A stretch of 64,000 nucleotides of DNA from the NCBI GenBank assembly GCA_020724805.1, contig DYGI01000001.1, positions 389,152 through 453,151 of the forward strand, in the 5' to 3' direction. Under the pieces are notes generated by a model that was not told the DNA's origin, searched no databases, and worked only from the letters and a program-made list of their open reading frames with translations. Positions 3,763 to 62,970 of the stretch are shown here, piece after piece (positions within the stretch are counted from its first letter, which is position 1; every line of letters starts with the position of its first letter). Position numbers and translations under genes: made by a program. The stretch is from Candidatus Microgenomatus sp. (GTDB taxonomy: Bacteria; Patescibacteriota; Minisyncoccia; UBA6257; GWB1-50-10).

Positions 3763-4071
3763 CTAAAGCGCGAGTATGAGGAGCACCGCGAGCGTGATAA
3801 TGAGGAGGAAGCTCACCGTATAAACCGCAAGCGTCACCGCATCGGAACGTTTCCCTTCCATGTACCACGCGACCGGGCGGCCAAAGACCGCAAGTGCGAG
3901 AATCGCGGCCGAAGAAGAGAAGAGGAGCAAGAAGCCCATAGGCGCCACGATATCTCCCGCTTTGCCGGCGAACTGTTCCGCGCCGCTCATAATAGCGGCG
4001 ACAAGCGCCACATAACAGGATGCGATGGCGGCATTCCCGAGCGCGTAGAGCGCTATCTTGTTTTTATTCAT
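3763..4071 (-). CDS. small membrane protein (hypothetical)
   Basis: Three hydrophobic helices. Start at the internal Met (MNKNK); a TATGATATAAT-like -10 lies upstream on the minus strand. Confidence 0.45.
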   Translation of the reverse strand: MNKNKIALYALGNAAIASCYVALVAAIMSGAEQFAGKAGDIVAPMGFLLLFSSSAAILALAVFGRPVAWYMEGKRSDAVTLAVYTVSFLLIITLAVLLILAL

Positions 4072-4104
4072 ATGAAAAATTATATCATACAGGCACTTCA
4101 CCTC

Positions 4105-4246
4105 GCCCTTAATTATAGGCTGAAGGTACTGAGGTTTTACTTCGTCGTTCCTCCTCAGTACCTTCTTCGCTATTTATCCATCAGTGCCATAGGCCCTGAT
4201 GAACGAAGTGAAGAAGGGCTGCGGGGGCTGAACGATGTTCGAACCT
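4105..4246 (+). repeat. island-boundary element copy 1 (13-bp hairpin plus tRNA-Gln 3'-end-like core at 4216-4245)
   Basis: About 100 nt of homology, with indels, to 53260-53400 in inverse orientation. Reverse complement of the core reads GGTTCGAACATCGTTCAGCCCCCGCAGCCC, resembling a tRNA-Gln T-loop and acceptor 3' end. Confidence 0.7.
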
Positions 4247-4252
4247 ACTTTA

Positions 4253-4912
4253 TCACGTCGTTATGGTTCCGAACAGTGATTCTGAAGTCGCGATTTGAGC
4301 GAGAATGCTAGTGTGCAGTTTTTTCACAGCGCTCACTATACGATGATCGCCAACGTATTGTTTAACTTGAGCTCTCACTTTATGGATCAAATCGTTCGCG
4401 ATTCCGAAACGACTCCACATATTCAATTCATCGTCTAGCGTGAGAGTTTCCGGGTTTTTATAAAGATTTGCAATGCACTCATAGTATTCGCGCATAACCG
4501 CTTTAGGTTCACCGTTTGGGGTTTCAATATAGGTGAGTGAATCACGTGCTATTTGCATATCGAAGTTTCTTACGTCCTCGATATCTTGCAGTATCTTTAC
4601 CGCAGTTCTTTTTATCCACATTTCTTCTCCCTGGTCACGCATTCCTTCATCTATACCTGGTATTGTCTCACTGATAGCGCTCGCTTGAACATCATCGTAG
4701 AGAAGATGTGAAAACCATCCCTTGCGAAAATCGCTGGTTCTGAATGAAAGATCTGTTTGGTATCCCTTTGGGTGTGTGGCGAGTCTGTTAATTTTTGTCA
4801 CATATCGGCTATCTGGGTATATTGAGCCGGAAATGTACGCGTCAGCATCTTTGACGGAGAGTAGATCCTTAACATCAAGAGCAAACCTTATATGTGATCC
4901 TTGGAGCGCCAT
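4253..4912 (-). CDS. hypothetical protein (219 aa), island cargo
   Basis: Long ORF in AT-rich DNA; bracketed within 8-9 nt at each end by the direct repeats at 4216-4245 and 4921-4948. No recognisable motif. Confidence 0.5.
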   Translation of the reverse strand: MALQGSHIRFALDVKDLLSVKDADAYISGSIYPDSRYVTKINRLATHPKGYQTDLSFRTSDFRKGWFSHLLYDDVQASAISETIPGIDEGMRDQGEEMWIKRTAVKILQDIEDVRNFDMQIARDSLTYIETPNGEPKAVMREYYECIANLYKNPETLTLDDELNMWSRFGIANDLIHKVRAQVKQYVGDHRIVSAVKKLHTSILAQIATSESLFGTITT

Positions 4913-4920
4913 AAACTTTT

Positions 4921-4948
4921 TGCTGCGGGGCTTAAACGACGTTAGAAC
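4921..4948 (+). repeat. island-boundary element copy 2 (partial, core only)
   Basis: tgctgcggggcttaaacgacgttagaac, about 75% identical to 4216-4245. Its reverse complement ends CCCCGCAGCA, like the tRNA-Gln(CTG) 3' end. Confidence 0.6.
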
Positions 4949-5021
4949 TTATTTCCTTTCGACAAGTACCATTCATTAATAAAAATGGGTTCTACCCAAT
5001 TAGGGACATTGATTCTAATTA

Positions 5022-5528
5022 CTAAAAGACATAAATAACCTTTCCTATAATATCGTCTACCTGTTTAACGCCCAATATCGAATTCTCGTTATCACCTTTT
5101 TGGAACACCTCTCCATCGTTGAGATCAAAGCGTAAGATGGTGTCTGGTTTTATAATGTCCAACTCCGAAGCTGAAGAGTTTGGGAAAAGCGTTTTTTCTC
5201 CATTAACTGTGATAGTTTTATTTTCATCTATCACCACTTGATCGCCGGCGACACCGATAATCCTATGTATCCAGGGATCATAAACTGTTTCCTTCGTTAG
5301 CTTGTTTATAAGTGGCGTACCAAACATTACTATGTCGTTTCGTCTGACATTTGATAATAAGTAATGGATTCTACTTACCATCACGTAGCTTCCCTTATCA
5401 ATGGTTGGTTCCATTGAATCTCCTGCTACGTAGTGTATTGGGAAAAAAATTCTCACAAATAATCCAAGAAGAAAGAGAACCCCAATTACGTAGAAGGTGA
5501 ATCTTTTCCAAGGCTTTTTGGTCTGCAT
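5022..5528 (-). CDS. lepB: signal peptidase I (S26 family)
   Basis: N-terminal TM, catalytic Ser motif GDSMEPT, RIIGVAGD box. Confidence 0.8.
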   Translation of the reverse strand: MQTKKPWKRFTFYVIGVLFLLGLFVRIFFPIHYVAGDSMEPTIDKGSYVMVSRIHYLLSNVRRNDIVMFGTPLINKLTKETVYDPWIHRIIGVAGDQVVIDENKTITVNGEKTLFPNSSASELDIIKPDTILRFDLNDGEVFQKGDNENSILGVKQVDDIIGKVIYVF

Positions 5529-5549
5529 TGCTAGTTCTGCTTTATTTGA

Positions 5550-5819
5550 TTATAGGAAAAAATACGAAACGAAAGCCGAAAAGCTTGCCAGTAAATAACC
5601 AACTCCAGCAATGAAATTGATTGCCCGATTATCTTGGTTGAGAGTATCGAGGTATGCGTTAAAATCATTGATAAATTCTTCAATACCAAGTGGCACACCA
5701 TTAAAGGTTTTTACCCCTCCTTTATTTGAAAAGGGAGCGATTTTTTGAAAACTTCTCCAGAAATGATAAATCGCCAAAGCAAGAAATGAAAATGTAAATA
5801 TTATCCAAATGTACTTCAT
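5550..5819 (-). CDS. small membrane protein (hypothetical)
   Basis: Internal start MKYIWIIF; two TM helices. Confidence 0.4.
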   Translation of the reverse strand: MKYIWIIFTFSFLALAIYHFWRSFQKIAPFSNKGGVKTFNGVPLGIEEFINDFNAYLDTLNQDNRAINFIAGVGYLLASFSAFVSYFFL

Positions 5820-5972
5820 GGCTGGGAGGCTTGGGAGCGAACAACGCTCGTATTCACTCGCGTTCACAAAACCCTCGGTTTTGTGTCCACTATCGTTCAA
5901 TCCGACACGGAAGGGACACAAAAGGTTTCCCTTCCGACCCATCCCTCACTTAAATCGTCAGATTTAAGTCCA

Positions 5973-6002
5973 GATTCATGGCTTCAAAGGCCGCTGTCCT
6001 AT
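5973..6002. repeat. tRNA-Gln fragment (anticodon-arm region) duplicate
   Basis: agattcatggcttcaaaggccgctgtcctat matches tRNA positions 6068-6100 with one mismatch. Confidence 0.7.
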
Positions 6003-6046
6003 AGACAAGGGAGTGAGGAAATGGAAAGCGTCACTCCTGCGCACCG

Positions 6047-6117
6047 CTGGGAGGCTTGGGATCGAACCAAGATTCACGGCTTCAAAGGCCGCTGTCCTAC
6101 CATTAGACGACCTCCCA
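6047..6117 (-). tRNA. tRNA-Gln (anticodon TTG)
   Basis: Cloverleaf: acceptor TGGGAGG/CCTCCCA, D-arm GTCT/GGAC, anticodon loop CTTTGAA, T-arm CTTGG-TTCGATC-CCAAG, discriminator G. U1-A72 is typical of bacterial tRNA-Gln. Confidence 0.85.
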
Positions 6118-6193
6118 GCGGTGCGCACGAATGTGTAATTGTCGAGGAACGTTTTCTATTTCCGAGCGAGCGCCGTATGTATGGCGAAACCAT

Positions 6194-6212
6194 ACCATTA
6201 GACGACCTCCCA
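6194..6212. repeat. tRNA-Gln 5'-end fragment duplicate
   Basis: accattagacgacctccca identical to tRNA positions 6099-6117. Confidence 0.7.
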
Positions 6213-6237: not shown

Positions 6238-6861
6238 ATGGAATTCGCAACTTGGCTTATGGTGGAACTTCCGGTGATAGGGGAATGGGTGCTCGCGCTC
6301 GCTGCGGGAGCCATCTATTTTTCTTTTTCTCGTCGTGCTCCCGCGCATAACGTAACGCGTATGCGGCAAGTATTCATCGCGGCCGTCGCGGTGATTTTCG
6401 GGGTCGCCGCGCTTTCCACGTTCCTGCAGTATTCGGTTTGGAAAGCCGACCAATTCTCACAAAACTTCCTTCCCCCGCATCAGTCGATTCTGTATTTTGC
6501 AAAGTATGCCGGCACGCACTTCTGGCTCACCCCGGTCCTTTCGCTCGTCATTGCCGGCGCGTTTTTTTTGTTCCTCCACGTGCTCGCGCGAAAAAACGAA
6601 AGGTTCTTCGAAGAGGGTGAAATTGAGCTGGGCGCTCTCGCCGCTTTGCTTGCAGGATGGCCTGGGTTCGTGATTTTTCTTCCCGCTGTCTTTCTTGCAG
6701 TCGTCGTCATTTCCGGGGCAAAACTGATGCTGCAAAAAAGCGCTTACACCACGCTAGGACTTCCGCTTCTTGTCGGACTTTTTGTGGCGTTGGTGTGGGG
6801 AGACGCCACCCTCCGTCTCGTGGGACTTGGGCTTCTCGCGGTTATTCCCGGCGCGCGCTAA
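6238..6861 (+). CDS. polytopic membrane protein, possibly divergent prepilin-peptidase-like (A24)
   Basis: 6-7 TM helices. EIELGALAALLAGWPG resembles the GxGDVKLLAALGAWLG block of PilD-type peptidases, but the Asp is replaced, so the call is weak. Confidence 0.3.
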   Translation: MEFATWLMVELPVIGEWVLALAAGAIYFSFSRRAPAHNVTRMRQVFIAAVAVIFGVAALSTFLQYSVWKADQFSQNFLPPHQSILYFAKYAGTHFWLTPVLSLVIAGAFFLFLHVLARKNERFFEEGEIELGALAALLAGWPGFVIFLPAVFLAVVVISGAKLMLQKSAYTTLGLPLLVGLFVALVWGDATLRLVGLGLLAVIPGAR

Positions 6862-7975
6862 GTCCCTCGATAATCGCCACCTCAAGCGGAATAAGAGGGA
6901 ACTGACTGTAACGCATCTGGCTGTAGGCGCGGATGAACGTTTTGATGAGCTCAAGGTGTTCCGGCGCGAAAAGCTTGGCGTGCGTAAGAAGGGTTTTCAT
7001 GTGTTCGTCGGTAAGCTCGGCTGCAAATTTCTTCTCCATCGCGGGTTGATAGGAAAGCACCGCCACTCGACGGAGATATTGCACCACGTCCTTGGTGAAC
7101 TGCAGCAAACTGTAGCCGCCGTCTTGAATTTCCTCCACGCGCGCAAGCGCGTCGTCGAGATTCTTGCGGAGTAGGAGTTCGACGAATCCCGACAGCTTTG
7201 TGAACGCCACCTTTCCTATCATTTTCTCCACATCTTCCACCGAAAGTTCTTTCCCGCGGAATGTAATAAGTTGGTCGAAAAGAGATTCGGCATCGCGGAA
7301 ACTTCCTTCTGCCGCCGAGGCGATAAGGTCAAGTGCTTCCTCGCTCGCTTTCACACTCTCGGCTTTCGCCACCATCGCAAGTTTCTCGGCTATCTCATCG
7401 CGAGTCACCGAGCGAAAATGGAACGTTTGAGTGCGCGAGGTGATGGTGGGCGGAACCTTTTCCACCTCCGTGGTGGCAAGAATGAGAATCACTTGTGCCG
7501 GCGGTTCTTCCAGCGTCTTCAAAAGCGCGTTCCACGCATCTTTCGAAAGTTGATGCGCCTCATCGAAGATTATTATCTTGTAGCGCCCCATTGAAGGCGC
7601 GGCGCGGAGATTTTCTTTGAGCTCACGGATGTCGTCGATGCCGCGGTTCGAGGCCGCATCGATCTCCATTACGTCCAAAAAGCGTCCCTCGTCTATTTCA
7701 CGGCACGCGGTGCACTGATTGCACGGCTCACCCTTCGCGCGGAACTTCTCATCCTTCGTTCGTGTTTCGCAATTCGCAATCTTTGCGATAAGGCGCGCGG
7801 TGGTGGTTTTTCCGGTGCCGCGAGGACCCGCGAAGAGATACGCGTGCGCTAAGTTACCCGTCTTCGCCGCCTCCTTCAGTATCCGCACGGTAAGCTCCTG
7901 GCCCAAGAGCGCATCGAATGTCGCCGGCCGATATTTTCGGTAGATTGCGAGTGCCATCGGTTTCATTATACGCAT
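6842..7975 (-). CDS. dnaX: DNA polymerase III subunit gamma/tau
   Basis: Walker A GPRGTGKTT, Zn-module CNQCTACREI, DEAH-like IFDEAHQLS, SRTQ sensor. Confidence 0.9.
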   Translation of the reverse strand: MRIMKPMALAIYRKYRPATFDALLGQELTVRILKEAAKTGNLAHAYLFAGPRGTGKTTTARLIAKIANCETRTKDEKFRAKGEPCNQCTACREIDEGRFLDVMEIDAASNRGIDDIRELKENLRAAPSMGRYKIIIFDEAHQLSKDAWNALLKTLEEPPAQVILILATTEVEKVPPTITSRTQTFHFRSVTRDEIAEKLAMVAKAESVKASEEALDLIASAAEGSFRDAESLFDQLITFRGKELSVEDVEKMIGKVAFTKLSGFVELLLRKNLDDALARVEEIQDGGYSLLQFTKDVVQYLRRVAVLSYQPAMEKKFAAELTDEHMKTLLTHAKLFAPEHLELIKTFIRAYSQMRYSQFPLIPLEVAIIEGLSARRE

Positions 7976-8069
7976 GTTTTTTGCATCGGCGCACGGATTG
8001 ACGATTTTGCCGCTTTGTTATACGAAATAGGTAGCACCCACCATCAACGTACGAAAGGAGACGTCCATT

Positions 8070-8558
8070 ATGAAAATCGGGGCCGATTTCGAACCTTTTT
8101 TTCGTGAAGAGCAGGTCATGACCCTCACCGTGGACTACGACCAGCCCGTGTCAGAGTATTTTCTGCGCGGCAAGTATGAGGAAACACCCCATTATCCCGA
8201 CGCACGGATTCCCAACACCTACCGTGGTGTGGGCACCGCGGTGAAGCCAATCCTGCTTCTCAAACTCAAGGCGCCCGCGACCACCGAGACGATACTCGCG
8301 GAAATGGAGCGTTTTCGACTCCGGCCGGTCGGCGCGCATGAACTTCTTTCCATCGGCGCCCACGACCCGATAATCCAGGTGAAGAACCAGATCGTCGGAC
8401 TCGGAGCTATCTGGAATGGGAGTTTAGAAGGGCCGTATGCGCTTGCGCTCGCGTTCTATCTGGCGCGACGCCGCGTGGTCTTTACGTGGCCTCACCGCTC
8501 GGTGCGGCACGAATGGCAAACCAACGTGCTCTTTGCGGCGACTCCGCTTGCCGCATAG
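8070..8558 (+). CDS. hypothetical protein
   Basis: 162-aa ORF, no motif recognised. Confidence 0.4.
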   Translation: MKIGADFEPFFREEQVMTLTVDYDQPVSEYFLRGKYEETPHYPDARIPNTYRGVGTAVKPILLLKLKAPATTETILAEMERFRLRPVGAHELLSIGAHDPIIQVKNQIVGLGAIWNGSLEGPYALALAFYLARRRVVFTWPHRSVRHEWQTNVLFAATPLAA

Positions 8559-31982: not shown

Positions 31983-32066
31983 GCGCGGGTGGTGGAACTG
32001 GCAGACACACTACCTTGAGGTGGTAGCGCCCGCAAGGGCTTGGAGGTTCGAATCCTCTCCCGCGCA
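31983..32066 (+). tRNA. tRNA-Leu (anticodon GAG)
   Basis: Acceptor GCGCGGG/CCCGCGC, anticodon loop TTGAGGT, long variable arm, T-arm GGAGG-TTCGAAT-CCTCT, discriminator A. Confidence 0.85.
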
Positions 32067-32099
32067 CAGATGAAATATTCAATACCCTCGTGGTATTGG

Positions 32100-49053: not shown

Positions 49054-49124
49054 TGCGGGATCGTCTAATGGTAGGACGTCTGGCTCTGAACCAGAAAATT
49101 GGGGTTCGATTCCCTGTCCCGCAG
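49054..49124 (+). tRNA. tRNA-Gln (anticodon CTG)
   Basis: Acceptor TGCGGGA/TCCCGCA, D-arm GTCT/GGAC, anticodon loop CTCTGAA, T-loop TTCGATT, discriminator G. Confidence 0.8.
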
Positions 49125-49261
49125 CATTAGGACTAAATAGTCCTAAAATACCCACCGGAGAGGTGGGGTTCGCGTTTTAGTACGACTCCGTGTACGTTTT
49201 TTCCCTTTTCGGCATTCCTACCCCCGTTATATTCTCCTCTCGGCACTCTTAGAGTCTGAAG

Positions 49262-49477
49262 GTGAACAGGTTCCCGTACCAAATCACCAATACGCTTAGA
49301 GAACATAGGAAGGCTGTAGGATTGAGTCAGCAGAAGGTGGCGGCTGCCTTGGGGATACAGGACAACACTCTTATTTCTCGATGGGAGCGGGGCGCAGCTC
49401 TCCCCTCTCTCGTGAGCGTATACCGACTCATGGAGCTCTATAGGGCTACGTTTGAGGAGTTGTTTCCGAAGGTCTAG
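49262..49477 (+). CDS. XRE-family helix-turn-helix transcriptional regulator
   Basis: LSQQKVAAALGIQDNTLISRWERG is a classic Cro/C1 HTH. Confidence 0.75.
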   Translation: MNRFPYQITNTLREHRKAVGLSQQKVAAALGIQDNTLISRWERGAALPSLVSVYRLMELYRATFEELFPKV

Positions 49478-49593
49478 TAAAGCGATGATTTTACGATTTC
49501 TTGAACAAAACCACTAGTTGCAAAAATGCTTGATAACCCTTATCTTTTTCTAAATCCTAAAGCACAATTTGCTATAGTTAGAAATGAAATCTG

Positions 49594-50280
49594 ATGACGG
49601 AAAAAATCTTCGTTCAAAGATTAAAAAAGATTTTTAAGCAGGACGGATACCTCGTTAGAGAGGAAATCGGTGTGGGGCACGGTATAGCAGATTTAGTTTT
49701 AATTAGGGGCAGCAGGATCAACCAACGACACGTCGAGCTAAGAAAAAGCTATCGCCAGTTGTCTCCTCTGCTTAAGGAAGAGTATTTCCGCACGCTAAAT
49801 GTAATACCCGATCAGCCAGGGAAAGCATCGCTAGATCTAATTGTAAAAAAAACCCACTTATCCAAGCCTTATCTGAAATACTCCATCCTTAGAACGCTTG
49901 AGAAAAAGGGATATATCAAGTCGAACGGAGAGAACCATTATTTTAAGATTAACGGTTGGGTTCCACTAACAAGCGAACTAATTGCAGTGGAAGCAAAACT
50001 AAAGGACTGGAAAAGAGGACTCATCCAAGCGAATCGATATAAGATCTTTGCAAACAAAGTTTATTTGGCAATTCCTTCCTCTCATGCTCACCTCGTGGAC
50101 AGAAAGATGTTGAGAAAACATGGAATCGGACTAATCACATTAGATATAGTGAGCGGGAAGAAAAATATCCCACTCCGTGCAAGTCATAATATACCCGCGA
50201 ATTTACCTCGCAGTAACTTTGCAGTTGAACATTTCTGGGGAAAACAGATCTACAAACGAGCAGAGGCGCGGCCAATCTAG
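49594..50280 (+). CDS. hypothetical protein, possible PD-(D/E)xK-fold nuclease with central wHTH
   Basis: GHGIADLVLI ... IAVEAKLKDW fits a D...ExK arrangement; weak. Confidence 0.35.
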   Translation: MTEKIFVQRLKKIFKQDGYLVREEIGVGHGIADLVLIRGSRINQRHVELRKSYRQLSPLLKEEYFRTLNVIPDQPGKASLDLIVKKTHLSKPYLKYSILRTLEKKGYIKSNGENHYFKINGWVPLTSELIAVEAKLKDWKRGLIQANRYKIFANKVYLAIPSSHAHLVDRKMLRKHGIGLITLDIVSGKKNIPLRASHNIPANLPRSNFAVEHFWGKQIYKRAEARPI

Positions 50281-50714
50281 GATATTTTCGAAAACGCTTG
50301 AGTAAACTTTTCGGGAGATATTGTGCGCACGTCTCCAAACCTTCCTATATCAAGTAAATCTCTATCGCGGGTGATGATAATTTTTGCGGCGCAAGTCCTC
50401 GCAACTCTTACGTATTCATCATCGTCAGGGTCCCTCTGAATGTAGCGTGCTAACTTCTCAGTGGAATTCGGCTCTACCATATTTACGAATGCTCTATAGT
50501 CCAAGATAATTTTTTCAGGACTAAATATTTGCCTTTTCAGATATTTCTGAAGCCTACCAATCTGAATTTTTTCGCAGAACTCTTGGTAGGTCGCCGAACT
50601 GCCGAATATTAATATTCTTTTTTCTAGCGCCCAATTAATAATTCTTCTTGTTGGGCCAGGCGTCCCCAACATACCCGAAATGAGAATGTTCGTATCCGGC
50701 ACTACCTTGATCAT
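50277..50714 (-). CDS. PIN-domain nuclease (TIGR00305-like toxin family)
   Basis: N-terminal VVPDTNILISGML and conserved acidic residues (..ARTCAAKIIITRDRDLL). Start overlaps the stop of the TGT-like gene by 4 nt. Confidence 0.7.
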   Translation of the reverse strand: MIKVVPDTNILISGMLGTPGPTRRIINWALEKRILIFGSSATYQEFCEKIQIGRLQKYLKRQIFSPEKIILDYRAFVNMVEPNSTEKLARYIQRDPDDDEYVRVARTCAAKIIITRDRDLLDIGRFGDVRTISPEKFTQAFSKIS

Positions 50715-51880
50715 GAGTCAAGCTCGGATAGTAACGTTTTCAGTTCGTCATCATCACCAGGAAACTCCCATGTCTTTGCCAAATCTAGAACAGCCTTCCA
50801 ACGAGGAAGGTAGGCTGTCTTTACCCCAATGGCGCGAGACCGCAACTTCGAAGTTAACTGAATAGCATCATCGACCCGCTTAGACAGGACACTTATCCGT
50901 TTCTCTTTCGTTAAATTTTGAAGAGATTGAACACTTGATAATCTCGTGTGAAGAAAGTGTAGCTTTTTAGCCGCCACTTCTTTGGGGTATGACCCACCAC
51001 ACGCCGGACAATTACAGGAGTATTTTATCTTCTTCAGATCTTGATCGTTGAGATAATCAAAAATCTCCGGCACGTATGTTTTTTCGATTCGCTTACTCCA
51101 TCCCTTAGGCGTACTTTGAAGATTCTTCACGACGAACATTTCTCCCGCTGCCAGACCGCTTCCAAAGCCGCTTGCACCTACTGCACAAAGAACCTCACCA
51201 AATGGACCGATTTTATTGGCAAAGACCACACTCCCCTCCGAGAGACGGAATGCTAAGCGGGCAAATTCTAAGAGTGAGTCTTGGTCGGCACTTTCACAAT
51301 CTAGATCATTTATCACAACTATATAACCGTCTAACGAGTCACGAAAATCCTCTTTATACCTATCAATGATGTAATTGATGACCGTGGGTCGATTAAGAAT
51401 AGAGCTTCCCAATTTCAGCATCGCAAAAACCGGAATTTCTTGTTTTGTCTCCTGAAGATAGCGCAACGTTTCTGACAGCATGGAAATATTAACACCAAAT
51501 TTTAGGTCGTCGGTATCTTCACAAAAAAAATAAGGAGCTATCATTACTGATGCCTGTTTACGGAACTGGTCTTGTACGGCAATCTGAACAATCTTCTCCT
51601 TACGAAAACCGGGGTCACTGTAAACTTTTTCCGCGTTAACTTCATTTGGATATCCCAGTCTTTTAAAATTCTCCCCTTCACTCGCATCCTTGAATAGCAG
51701 GATGTCTGTCGAGGGGTCTATGATAAATACGTCTGATATCGCCCTTAATTTCTCAGCGACTTTTGGACGCCACTCCGAATGTCTTGTATCCATAAGCACG
51801 GCAGGAAAGCGGAATCCTAGTGATTCCAAGTGTCCGTCCTGTGCATTCGGCAAAAAGATTGGTGTTTTCGGTATCAACAT
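50711..51880 (-). CDS. tRNA-guanine-transglycosylase (TGT) superfamily-like zinc-binding protein (DpdA/TGT-like); catalytic Asp possibly missing
   Basis: N-terminal KTPIFLPN resembles TGT ETPCFMPVGT. LDGYIVVINDL resembles FDGYAVGGLAVGE. C-terminal CNCPAC-(13 aa)-HFLH resembles the TGT zinc site CDCYTC...YLHHL. The GIDMFDCV nucleophile region aligns to GEMFVVKN. Confidence 0.45.
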   Translation of the reverse strand: MLIPKTPIFLPNAQDGHLESLGFRFPAVLMDTRHSEWRPKVAEKLRAISDVFIIDPSTDILLFKDASEGENFKRLGYPNEVNAEKVYSDPGFRKEKIVQIAVQDQFRKQASVMIAPYFFCEDTDDLKFGVNISMLSETLRYLQETKQEIPVFAMLKLGSSILNRPTVINYIIDRYKEDFRDSLDGYIVVINDLDCESADQDSLLEFARLAFRLSEGSVVFANKIGPFGEVLCAVGASGFGSGLAAGEMFVVKNLQSTPKGWSKRIEKTYVPEIFDYLNDQDLKKIKYSCNCPACGGSYPKEVAAKKLHFLHTRLSSVQSLQNLTKEKRISVLSKRVDDAIQLTSKLRSRAIGVKTAYLPRWKAVLDLAKTWEFPGDDDELKTLLSELDS

Positions 51881-52005
51881 TCTTCGTTCTTTCTATTAGA
51901 GAAGATTGTCGGTACAAAATATACAATAAAATTCCTTGCTTGGAAAGCGTTATGTATCGCCGCTATTTAGAACACCCCCTCGGTAGGGGGTGTTCTGTCT
52001 GGCGC

Positions 52006-52275
52006 TTAGGTATCTTTGCTGATCGCCTGTATGGTTTCGGCTGCTGGGCCTAAAGCGTTTACTATCTCTATTTTTTCCTTTCCATAATGATCCCTCAAGC
52101 CCTTTAAGAGTTCGTCAGCATAAGAAGGCGTTAGGACCTCTACGCCAGAAAAGTCTAAAACAATATTCTCCTTGTCCGCTGAGCCGTTGATAATCTGTCG
52201 CAGACGCAAAAGCGCCTCCCTACCGGTAGGTCTACCATTCAGCACAGTTCCAAATTTTTGCATCATTACCGTCAT
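52006..52275 (-). CDS. STAS-domain protein (anti-sigma-factor-antagonist-like, DUF4325-type)
   Basis: ...ENIVLDFSGVEVLTPSYADELL... is the typical STAS beta-alpha core; 89 aa. Confidence 0.55.
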   Translation of the reverse strand: MTVMMQKFGTVLNGRPTGREALLRLRQIINGSADKENIVLDFSGVEVLTPSYADELLKGLRDHYGKEKIEIVNALGPAAETIQAISKDT

Positions 52276-52281
52276 ATGATT

Positions 52282-53124
52282 TCACTTGTATTCTATCACA
52301 ACTGACGCCAGCGTCCCTAAGATACGATTCACTACGGATGACTTTTGCCCTTGTTCATCCACGACTACTAATCCCTCCCCAGAATGCACTCTGACTTTAC
52401 CATTAAACTTGTTAATTGTCCAGTCCTGAACGAGCCTCAACCCATTGCCGCGTTTCTCCCCCACTCTTCCCGTTACACCTGTTAGTCCAAGCTGTATCGC
52501 ATCGACATCGTTAGCTAGATTAGGATCACGAACCTTTAAGGAACCGAGGAAGCCAATCCCCGGGTCTGCAATGGCAATCTCAATGAACTTCTTCTCAGGA
52601 TAATTCTGTGCGACCATGATCGCCCCGCCAACATTCGTTGGCCACACTCCTTCATTGTGATCAAAAACATTGTTTCCGAGCTCACCGATAAGCGAGGTAA
52701 CCCGTTGTTCATCTTCCCCACGCAGGCCGAAGTTCCTGAGCATTAAGCGGATATTAGAAGAAAGACGCGCATTGAATTCATCCCTGTAGGTGCAGTGGAG
52801 TATCTCGTGTAGGTTTAGGTTCGGATGCTCGACCATTGGAAGAGAGTTCAATGGCGCAAGAAACGCACCGTATCCCATTGCGTCCATAAACTGAGGGAAG
52901 TGAATTCTCTTCAAATACGTCAAGACATCGTGGTGCTTAGGCAATACGAGTTCTTTCTTTGGTTGATCTTTTAGCTCAATCGCCCTTAAACAAATCATGC
53001 CAACGCCCCAGGGCTCGCACCACCCCGCTTTACTCAAATCAATAACATCCCCGTTAAACCATCCAGCATCCCGGCTGTAAATCTCACCAAATCCAAGTCT
53101 CATGATGGCTAAAGTATAAGCCAT
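52282..53124 (-). CDS. GHKL-family ATPase (RsbW/SpoIIAB-like kinase fold) with N-terminal extension
   Basis: N-box ELGNNVFDHN, G1 DPGIGF, G2 GLTGVTGRVGEKRGNGL. Pairs with the adjacent STAS gene. Confidence 0.55.
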   Translation of the reverse strand: MAYTLAIMRLGFGEIYSRDAGWFNGDVIDLSKAGWCEPWGVGMICLRAIELKDQPKKELVLPKHHDVLTYLKRIHFPQFMDAMGYGAFLAPLNSLPMVEHPNLNLHEILHCTYRDEFNARLSSNIRLMLRNFGLRGEDEQRVTSLIGELGNNVFDHNEGVWPTNVGGAIMVAQNYPEKKFIEIAIADPGIGFLGSLKVRDPNLANDVDAIQLGLTGVTGRVGEKRGNGLRLVQDWTINKFNGKVRVHSGEGLVVVDEQGQKSSVVNRILGTLASVVIEYK

Positions 53125-53259
53125 CTGAAACCGCTGCGTAAATGAACGGCATGGCTAGAACTTGTCTAATCCGGCAACTTCTCCCTCCTTGCCGTCCCCT
53201 TCCGCTCCCCTATACTGGACGCGTAGTCAATTGAGGAATATCTTCCTCGGCATACAAAA

Positions 53260-53400
53260 GGTTCGAACATCGTTCAGGCCCCGCAGCCCTTCTTCGCTTC
53301 GCTCATCAGGGCCTATGGCATCTCTTGAGCGAAGAAGGCACTGAGGAATCCTGAGTATGAACGAAGGACGACGAAGTGATAAAATTCGCTTGTGAGTCAC
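53260..53400 (-). repeat. island-boundary element copy 3 (tRNA-Gln 3'-end-like core 53260-53292 plus conserved hairpins)
   Basis: GGTTCGAACATCGTTCAGGCCCCGCAGCCC then ccttcttcgc...gaagaagg hairpin. About 93% identical over 64 nt to the reverse complement of 4190-4246. Confidence 0.7.
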
Positions 53401-62477: not shown

Positions 62478-62481
62478 AATG

Positions 62482-62552
62482 AGCCAGTGAGAGGAATCGA
62501 ACCTCCGTCTTCGCTTTACGAAAGCGTTGCTCTGCCATTGAGCTACACTGGC
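62482..62552 (-). tRNA. tRNA-Thr (anticodon CGT)
   Basis: Acceptor GCCAGTG/CACTGGC, D-arm GCTC/GAGC, anticodon loop TTCGTAA, T-arm GGAGG-TTCGATT-CCTCT, discriminator T. Confidence 0.8.
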
Positions 62553-62596: not shown

Positions 62597-62620
62597 CGCC
62601 CCGATTTGCATCGGGGCGGG
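62597..62620 (-). terminator. hairpin 3' of RNase P RNA
   Basis: ccgccccgat ttgc atcggggcgg perfect 10-bp stem. Confidence 0.5.
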
Positions 62621-62970
62621 AGAAGTATGACATAAGCCGGGTTCTGTCTACGCGACAATTCATCTGGGACCGCGATTGCTCGCGGACTCGAGCGGCACTT
62701 CCTCCGGTTTCCCTCGGGACACGGCCTTGCACTCGGGTAAGGATTTAGCCGTTTCATCTCCGCGTTTCTATCCCTATCGCGGATATGGACCTTTTGGCCT
62801 GGGATCAGGTCCTCCTTCGCCTTTCGACTCGGGACGTTTCTGCTCGCACCTCTATCCTCACGGACGACGGGTGTTACCCGCTACCTTGCTCCTCCATTGC
62901 TGAAGGGAGTGCCCGGACTTTCCTCACTCACGACTTAACGTCGGAGCGCTGTCGCTTGTCATACTTCTAC
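62620..62970 (-). ncRNA. rnpB: RNase P RNA (bacterial rnpB)
   Basis: On the minus strand the P4 strands read GAGGAAAGTCCGGGCACTCCC and ACAGAACCCGGCTTA. P1 pairs GAAGTATGACA with TGTCATACTTC at the two ends. Confidence 0.85.

Follow-up and report, generated by a model that had tools for sequence, protein, structure and literature searches.

What is a structured element of about 130 nucleotides (nt), found in two inverted copies next to two different tRNA-Gln genes, doing in the genome of a member of the Patescibacteriota? The question is raised by a 64,000-nt stretch of Candidatus Microgenomatus sp. (NCBI GenBank assembly GCA_020724805.1, contig DYGI01000001.1, positions 389,152 to 453,151 of the forward strand; the whole stretch is hereafter the window), in which a first-pass annotation made from the sequence had described the element in both of two islands and had suspected either an attachment (att) arm carrying recombinase-binding sites or a small RNA made from the island end. 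The element is indeed present in both islands, with its second copy inverted and with every sequence feature that had been listed for it. We consider it probable that this element is an end piece, or scar, of a large serine recombinase (LSR) integrase gene bearing an att site, together with adjoining DNA, and that it lies where islands inserted next to the two tRNA-Gln genes have their tRNA-distal border. This kind of feature is an ordinary one, and the host group is little studied.

The repeated element and its coding core

The element combines a conserved 37-nt core with a hairpin-forming flank, and a third copy in the window consists of the core only. The parts are the following, in window coordinates.

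4217..4253, + strand: core of copy 1, GGCTGCGGGGGCTGAACGATGTTCGAACCTACTTTAT, which encodes (G)LRGLNDVRTYF(I) on the + strand (nhmmer with the core profile, E=1.2e-11); its reverse complement is the tRNA-end-like GGTTCGAAC...CCCCGCAG
4133..4216, + strand: hairpin-forming flank of copy 1, a CCTTCTTC...GAAGAAGG stem around GCCATAGGCCCTGATGA, plus the ACTTCGTCGT block, common to copy 2 only; the hairpin block of the flank is CCCTTCTTCRCTTCGYTCATCAGGGCCTATGGCA
4122..4165: perfect 13-bp inverted repeat (arms 4122-4134, GAAGGTACTGAGG, and 4153-4165, CCTCAGTACCTTC), in copy 1 only, from the repeat search
4921..4957, + strand: core of copy 3, TGCTGCGGGGCTTAAACGACGTTAGAACTTATTTCCT, which encodes (L)LRGLNDVRTYF(L) (nhmmer, E=1.7e-10; hidden Markov model (HMM) match, E=1e-3; repeat search)
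53252..53288, - strand: core of copy 2, which encodes (G)LRGLNDVRTF(C) on the - strand (nhmmer, E=9.5e-11; alignment)
53289..53383, - strand: hairpin-forming flank of copy 2, which reaches the GTG start of the GIY-YIG gene (53392)

Comparing the 64-kb window with itself by BLASTN, copy 1 (4133-4253, + strand) aligned to copy 2 (53252-53383, - strand) with 85% identity over 96 nt and 2 gaps (E=1e-26), and over the full 121/132 nt the identity is only 73% because of three indels. The 17- and 19-mers of the element occur exactly twice in the window, against 0.03-0.1 occurrences expected by chance. The two copies are alike through GTTCGAACCT and then split into island-specific sequence. The third copy lies within island 1 as a direct repeat of the copy 1 core, 704 nt apart from it, and the pair brackets a gene of 219 amino acids (aa). 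A fourth, inverted core at about 5892-5903 was dropped from consideration (nhmmer E=24). Outside the source genome, only the 37-nt core recurs.

The clearest property of the core is that it changes as coding sequence does. All three cores encode LRGLNDVRT(Y/F), copies 1 and 3 on the + strand and copy 2 on the - strand, in each case antisense to the tRNA-Gln genes. Of 33 core positions, 8 distinguish copies 1 and 3, and in one frame all 8 of these differences are synonymous, an outcome that was reached in none of 200,000 random sets of 8 substitutions (0/200,000); in the five other frames the same comparison gives 2-6 amino-acid changes or stop codons. Between copies 1 and 2, the 60-nt block GCCATAGG...GTTCGAACC has 3 differences, all of them synonymous and at third codon positions, and the nearby indel measures 6 nt. 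This pattern indicates that the core has diverged under selection at the protein level.

In the flank, the few substitutions present leave the peptide of the LSR frame unchanged, and the open reading frame (ORF) stays open; in this frame the element reads ...PQ[YC]LLR...AIGPDERSEEGLRGLNDVRTYF. Matches of the flank to LSR proteins are suggestive (tblastn E=0.014; BLASTP alignment to P0005, E=0.34). The flank of about 90 nt may thus come from the hypervariable stretch that precedes the motif and be recombinase coding sequence specific to this lineage, or it may be the flank of a former target.

Recombinase genes and tRNA attachment sites

To which protein does this peptide belong? A scan with the degenerate pattern LRGLNDVRT[YF] returned 5 metagenome contigs, and the same scan of the GTDB representative genomes gave one chance match (L006) and nothing real, the source genome evidently not being among these representatives. 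At the locus L011 the motif stands close to the C-terminus of a 608-aa ORF whose domains (Resolvase, Recombinase, Zn_ribbon_recom) mark it as a large serine recombinase. A search with the C-terminal region retrieved fragments of a common architecture, ...GSNLTLKDKK...(F/L)EPKK...IPALLRGLNDVRTYF, and a profile built from these fragments matched 3071 cluster representatives (50% identity) among 1.84 billion. Full-length members of the family have about 540-615 aa (540-656 aa at the widest), of which the profile matches the C-terminal ~240 aa, and an LRGLNDVRTYF-type motif is widespread among them; the nearest NCBIfam models are XisF and CcrB/A/C, all below the cut-off. The LSR is present in the related loci L011, L012, L014, L017, L018, L019 and L026, and L015 holds a 91-aa LSR fragment without a recombinase body; a tblastn search of phage genomes with the LSR C-terminus gave no match. 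Tblastn and HMM searches match the copy 1 core itself to the LSR C-terminus, and the 37-nt core is homologous at both the DNA and the protein level to the LSR C-terminal motif ...(IPAL)LRGLNDVRTYF.

It is also important to ask why a recombinase coding sequence should resemble the end of a tRNA. Some full-length representatives of the family end in ...IPALLRGLNAIRTYF plus a tail, and in 8 representatives (P0022, P0023, P0035, P0042, P0053, P0058, P0071 and P0140) antisense-tRNA peptides stand right after LLRG, such as RDSNPRY, QDSNLEP and EDLNLRPSGYEPDELPDCSTPR, seen for instance in the contexts LRRGRDSNPRY, LRGQDSNLEP and LLRGEDLNLRPSGYEPDELPDCSTPR. At L017 the LSR ORF (6554-8326, + strand) is convergent with a tRNA-Ser(gga) gene (8260-8345, - strand) and overlaps it by 66 nt, and both here and in L018 the family-profile match ends at ...allrg. 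No distal repeat of the tRNA-Ser was found in the 8.8-kb contig of L017. We read the last conserved LSR codons as occupying the site at which the ORF crosses a tRNA attachment site, with the core of the window as the non-tRNA version of that site. The core looks like a tRNA end because in other members the same part of the ORF is replaced by, or runs into, an antisense tRNA 3' end (acceptor and T arm). The overlap of LSR ORF and antisense tRNA is seen in family members; the window holds only the homologous core, in the same antisense orientation to tRNA-Gln. The possibility that the LSR 3' region is built of captured antisense tRNAs was rejected, as a search of the L011 3' region with the Rfam tRNA model gave nothing.

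With this in mind, two statements of the first-pass annotation can be placed. The tRNA-end-like character it gave to the core agrees with the resemblance and with the LSR/tRNA att overlap, but the core is not a copy of the 3' end of the adjacent tRNA-Gln. Its att arm with recombinase-binding sites was right in spirit, given this overlap and the direct repeats between cassettes considered below, but the protein-coding opposite strand had not been recognised.

A similar layout has been described in the ssrA islands of Dehalococcoides, where DsiB is a CcrB/XisF-like large serine recombinase whose gene is convergent with the target RNA gene, with a 3' end that overlaps the att site antisense to the tmRNA or tRNA 3' end (McMurdie et al., 2011; PMC3146451). 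Insertion takes place there in the T loop, tandem islands lie downstream of the RNA gene with short att repeats between them, DsiB alignments were reported to be divergent in the overlapping part, and the authors suggest that dsiB is complete only with a 3' fragment held at the other island end (PMC3146451). The likeness to the present case is one of gene layout and comprises an LSR ORF whose 3' end lies across att and antisense to an RNA gene, short direct repeats, and tandem arrays. The differences are that here a tRNA-Gln stands beside the islands (a tRNA-Ser in L017) and not ssrA; that the repeat does not reproduce the end of the adjacent tRNA, its 37-nt sequence being conserved across genomes; that the overlap encodes a conserved peptide motif, where DsiB is reported to be divergent; and that the islands of the window are without a recombinase or integration module.

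The mechanism we propose follows this precedent. The recombinase ORF would span its own attachment site, as in the Dehalococcoides ssrA islands, and integration followed by later cassette turnover would leave this gene end, with its att site, behind where islands and cassettes meet their surroundings. The bodies of the recombinase genes would have been lost from the window, or else the islands would be non-autonomous. Crossover would probably take place in or next to the T-loop-like word GTTCGAAC^C.

A T-arm-like word recurs in the recombinase genes. TCGAACC(T) is present three times in the last ~300 nt of the LSR gene in the seven loci with extracted DNA (L011:1472-1900, - strand; L012:8001-8399; L014:5186-5600, - strand; L015:6661-6936; L017:8080-8290; L019:11530-11750; L026:6180-6390), and motif 2 is also found in L018. 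In many cases the word forms the palindrome GGTTCGAACC, which is antisense to a tRNA T arm. The spacing of the three words is constant (103 and 88 nt) and each is read in a different frame, giving the conserved peptides GSN, (F/L)EP and (V/I)RT; the Ser codon of GSN is TCG in 7/7 extracted loci, and the Arg codon of xRT, wherever present, is NGA. In L017 the T loop of a real tRNA-Ser takes the third TCGAACC position. The recurrence suggests a constraint at the nucleotide level, e.g., multiple recombinase-binding subsites.

Two of the related loci have further structure of their own. At L014:5186-7378 an intact LSR of the family (551 aa, - strand) lies about 170-380 nt from a decayed 52-aa C-terminal fragment on the opposite strand (P0010, 7220-7378), with the T-arm-like word GGTTTGAATCG at 7137, where motif 1 would be; this arrangement possibly marks an integration into an older recombinase remnant. 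The Acidobacteriota metagenome-assembled genome with L012 has an 11.4-kb island (L012:2632-14184) between 109-nt direct repeats of 95% identity, which comprise the region upstream of tRNA-Lys(ctt) and the 5' ~43 nt of the tRNA gene itself; its LSR, in the middle of the island, is split into ORFs of 452 aa and 132 aa that overlap by 4 nt, through a frameshift or as a pseudogene.

Islands and insertion sites in the window

The surroundings of the three cores show how the islands are built. The relevant features are given below.

4254..6045: island 1, 39-44% GC, with the 219-aa gene (4253-4912, - strand), an S26 signal peptidase (5022-5528, - strand) and a small membrane ORF (5550-5942, - strand)
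6046..6117, - strand: tRNA-Gln(ttg), the proximal anchor of island 1
5821..5842, - strand: displaced 3' end of tRNA-Gln(ttg), 95% identity, ending in ...GCGAAC on the + strand (repeat search)
5972..6001, - strand: displaced anticodon arm to T stem of tRNA-Gln(ttg), 97% identity (repeat search)
6193..6212, - strand: exact copy of the first 20 nt of tRNA-Gln(ttg), upstream of the gene (repeat search)
49054..49125, + strand: tRNA-Gln(ctg), the proximal anchor of island 2
49126..53180: island 2, 43-47% GC, with an XRE helix-turn-helix gene, a 228-aa ORF, a PIN gene, a 389-aa ORF, a DUF4325/STAS-like gene and a 280-aa ATPase-like gene
49154..49172, + strand: partial copy of tRNA-Gln(ctg), 79% identity, which breaks inside the T loop (…GGGGTTCG; repeat search)
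53189..53216, + strand: promoter-like site, sigma-70-like TTGCCG-16-TATACT, aimed through copy 2 into the GIY-YIG gene and obg

Each of the two full copies of the element is found downstream of a tRNA-Gln gene, and both are oriented alike with respect to it, with a low-GC island (39-45% GC) between gene and copy; the GC content outside the islands is about 54%. Among the ORFs of island 1 and island 2 we found no recombinase gene or domains, and domain searches of the same ORFs gave no tyrosine integrase gene in either island. The fragments at 5821-5842 and 5972-6001 together make up a pseudo-tRNA whose T arm (antisense ...GCGAAC^C...) is interrupted by 129 nt of inserted sequence. The loci of the window would fit repeated insertion at the T arm, with a crossover in or beside the T-loop-like word.

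By the similarity of its Obg protein (93% identity), the source bacterium is close to a Ca. Brennerbacteria metagenome-assembled genome. The promoter-like site is part of a 57-nt segment (53183-53239) that has an 88% conserved counterpart upstream of obg in L024, a relative with 95% Obg identity (L024:4332-4388), and between this segment and obg the window and L024 are entirely different. Among close Brennerbacteria-like relatives, the whole region from fmt/tRNA-Gln(ctg) to obg is hypervariable (L022:7650-10000, L024:3500-4700 and L025:1-1210), and the tRNA-Gln/GIY-YIG-to-obg site is a hot spot. Around obg the relatives L022-L025 have no core, and no third copy of the hairpin was obtained from them; in L022, L024 and L025 the genes that separate tRNA-Gln/GIY-YIG from obg are different ones. 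L022 has a 207-aa ORF, then a LAGLIDADG-like ORF preceded by a partial copy of the tRNA-Gln 5' end (8437-8475), then tRNA-Gln and an acetyltransferase; the L025 contig begins inside GIY-YIG, which is followed by NlpC/P60 and obg.

Several observations weigh against our interpretation of the element as a recombinase gene end. A tblastn search of the window with the L011 LSR gave only three C-terminal motif fragments and no LSR body in 64 kb, so the link to a recombinase is carried by the 37-nt core, its motif of 11-14 aa and the context. In the hairpin flank, two LSR family profiles align the motif only, and no copy of the flank was found beyond copies 1 and 2, both large DNA scans having used the core only. 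The metagenome matches were ascertained with a third-position-degenerate pattern, which leaves the comparisons within the window as the only unbiased ones on synonymous change. The motif-bearing recombinase gene lies inside the element in P0011/L019 and in L012, not at its border, which means that a layout with the ORF spanning att is not universal in the family. The core shares only two 7-mers, GGTTCGA and CCCGCAG, with the adjacent tRNA-Gln and is 5 nt longer than the tRNA 3' end. Because the conserved 57-nt segment lies between them, copy 2 is not flush with island 2; the placement of the copies at distal island borders, as first proposed, holds with regard to their common orientation and their position beyond the low-GC islands, but not in this last respect. 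Finally, two independent remnants cut at the same point would be odd.

The window has some other features. A 23-nt inverted repeat (6032-6054 / 6111-6133) frames the intact tRNA-Gln(ttg) gene and lengthens its acceptor stem by about 9 bp. The cargo of island 2 spans 49262-53124 and includes the ATPase-like protein, which has no Pfam match and a marginal match to DrmA only (PADLOC); this cargo may be an uncharacterised toxin-antitoxin or defence module. A class A RNase P RNA (62618-62967, - strand, 120 bits) adjoins tRNA-Thr(cgt) (62481-62552, - strand), and tRNA-Leu(gag) is found at 31983-32067 (+ strand), all of them ordinary; the order tRNA-Leu...tRNA-Gln...tRNA-Thr also occurs in the relative L022.

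Alternative explanations and known systems

The alternative that survives best takes the cores to be active. It is conceivable, if rather doubtful, that they are live sites of an integron-like cassette platform, in which a trans-acting LSR moves small recombinase-less cassettes at a 37-bp site that also forms the 3' end of the LSR's own gene. Arrays of cores were detected by nhmmer in L007 (3 cores, the third weak with E=0.38), L009 (2), L010 (2) and the window (2+1, two of them in island 1). In each of these arrays all cores are direct and bracket 1-2 small genes, the cassettes hold no recombinase, and the homology to LSR genes starts sharply at (TTG)CTSCGG; moreover, the cores of L007 and one of the two in L009 are each followed, in cargo orientation, by a terminator hairpin of their own. 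It is implausible that several LSR genes decayed independently and at random to the same 37 nt; the cores are att-type repeats. On the other hand, the arrays are equally explicable as fossils of successive integrations, no cassette presence/absence variants were found, and no LSR gene was seen beside the arrays, though the contigs are short.

A more speculative extension, in which we would place little trust, is a serine-recombinase counterpart of the integron. The ~37-bp site of the LSR family (its last conserved codons, a tRNA 3'-end mimic) would capture, stack and exchange tiny cassettes downstream of tRNA genes, and the three TCGAACC words in three frames would serve as a multi-subsite recombination or regulatory region coupling the integrity of the recombinase to the integrated or excised state. 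The hosts would be Patescibacteria and possibly other bacteria, the metagenome contigs not being taxonomically placed.

The likeness to integron attC sites lies in arrays of small cassettes in the same orientation, each with a repeated site and a neighbouring hairpin. The differences are that RYYYAAC/GTTRRRY boxes are missing here, that the core is conserved in sequence and not in structure only, and that the recombinase is of the serine rather than the tyrosine type, with no platform gene seen beside the arrays. As a candidate attC site the core was rejected, the nearest words to the two boxes, GCTGAAC and GTTCAGC, breaking the consensus. A dif/Xer-like site was rejected as well, its consensus features being missing.

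It is less probable again that the element is a structured non-coding RNA, a 5' leader or small RNA in tRNA orientation that acts on the genes downstream (copy 1 is followed by a 112-aa membrane protein, copy 2 by GIY-YIG and obg). Its main attraction is the folding. The ccttcttc/gaagaagg stem enclosing CAGGGCCTATGGCA forms in both copies, as had been predicted, and compared with shuffled sequence the folding of both is better (tRNA-sense strand, z-scores -5.2 and -2.3), but the opposite strand folds equally well (-5.0 and -2.7). The perfect 13-bp hairpin reported for copy 1 is present too, with one arm overlapping the outer stem of the main hairpin, whose 3' arm in this copy has here an alternative perfect 13-bp partner. 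Each copy lies directly upstream of a co-directional gene, and the conserved promoter-like site aims through copy 2; the two downstream genes, however, are unrelated to each other, and there is no U-tract after either hairpin. For the element, Rfam gave only chance microRNA-like hairpin matches, both when the whole window was searched at gathering thresholds and when 3950-4400 was searched at E<=10. There are two copies only, their inner stems pair in different registers and the outer stem is invariant, so true covariation is absent and no compensatory pair is found, and the other strand of the core demonstrably codes for recombinase.

The check proposed at the outset, a search for more copies and for covariation, had a divided outcome: copies metagenome-wide, of the core only, and no structural covariation. 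In viral contigs, exact scans gave 4 chance matches to the loop block and none to the core, and the degenerate core scan gave none. Nothing shows the hairpin flank acting as RNA, and a small RNA from the island end is not supported, with no Rfam match, no covariation, codon-periodic substitutions on the other strand and no further copy of the hairpin, the large collections having been scanned with the core. The flank is probably transcribed as part of mRNAs; copy 1 sits between two co-directional genes and copy 2 behind the promoter-like site. Two other candidates were tried and rejected. For a hammerhead ribozyme (CUGAUGA...GAA in the element), CUGAUGA pairs with CAUCAG and stem II would be 2 bp, and for the core as a promoter (TTGCTG-17-TAGAAC), L011 does not keep the spacing, and copies 1 and 2 lack the -10 hexamer.

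We would give hardly any weight to the ORFs across the element as real small-protein genes. These ORFs run from 4072-4311 (+ strand, 79 aa; this is P0001 in NCBI, JGI, Logan and GEM) and from 53227-53400 (- strand, 57 aa). Neither frame is interrupted anywhere in the element, the conserved part changes synonymously, and a gene caller annotated P0001. Against this, conservation does not extend to the N-terminal halves, the two copies read the ACTTCGTCGT block in different frames, each start overlaps that of a divergent neighbour, there is no Pfam match, and 5.8 billion proteins yielded only P0001 besides LSR C-termini and fragments; a protein search with three element ORFs alone likewise matched only the window's own P0001. 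The 79-aa ORF P0001 is most likely a spurious or pseudogene call.

That the core is the displaced 3' end of the neighbouring tRNA-Gln, the classical attR repeat of a tyrosine-integrase island, is very improbable and already contradicted: its orientation is that of the tRNA, it has the GGTTCGA and CCCGCAG of tRNA-Gln(ctg), and genuine displaced tRNA-Gln fragments lie nearby, but nothing beyond these two 7-mers matches either tRNA-Gln, the excess length comes with no T-stem pairing, nearly the same 37-mer stands in unrelated contigs without a tRNA nearby and within intact LSR ORFs, and the divergence is codon-periodic.

The reading of the element as the att-bearing end of an LSR gene can also be set beside two other known systems, the first of which comes, with the dsiB/ssrA islands, closest to it. 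In staphylococcal cassette chromosomes (SCC), LSRs (CcrAB or CcrC) move islands flanked by direct repeats at the 3' end of rlmH/orfX, and pseudo-SCC cassettes without ccr genes occur. What is alike are the composite tandem arrays, the att-derived direct repeats that are pieces of the 3' coding end of a gene, and the cassettes without a recombinase; the difference is that the repeated gene end belongs to the host target rlmH there and to the recombinase gene itself here, and that hosts and targets differ. In archaeal viruses of the SSV1 type, attP lies inside the integrase gene, and integration into a tRNA gene splits that gene. This resembles our case in that a tRNA-like att lies within the integrase ORF and a fragment of the gene is moved to the opposite end of the element; the archaeal integrases, however, are tyrosine recombinases, and the split removes a large part of the gene, compared with at most the last ~15-100 codons here.

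In place of a candidate novel structured RNA there is now a concrete, checkable reading, the att-bearing end of a serine-recombinase gene. The 37-nt marker and the C-terminal protein profile can be used for mapping island and cassette borders in Patescibacteria (the Candidate Phyla Radiation, CPR), in which mobile elements are poorly charted. The Dehalococcoides-type layout, with a recombinase ORF across a tRNA or tmRNA att site, is common to members of a large family (3071 representatives). If the arrays of core-flanked mini-cassettes are active, they would provide a serine-recombinase route to the accumulation of cassettes.

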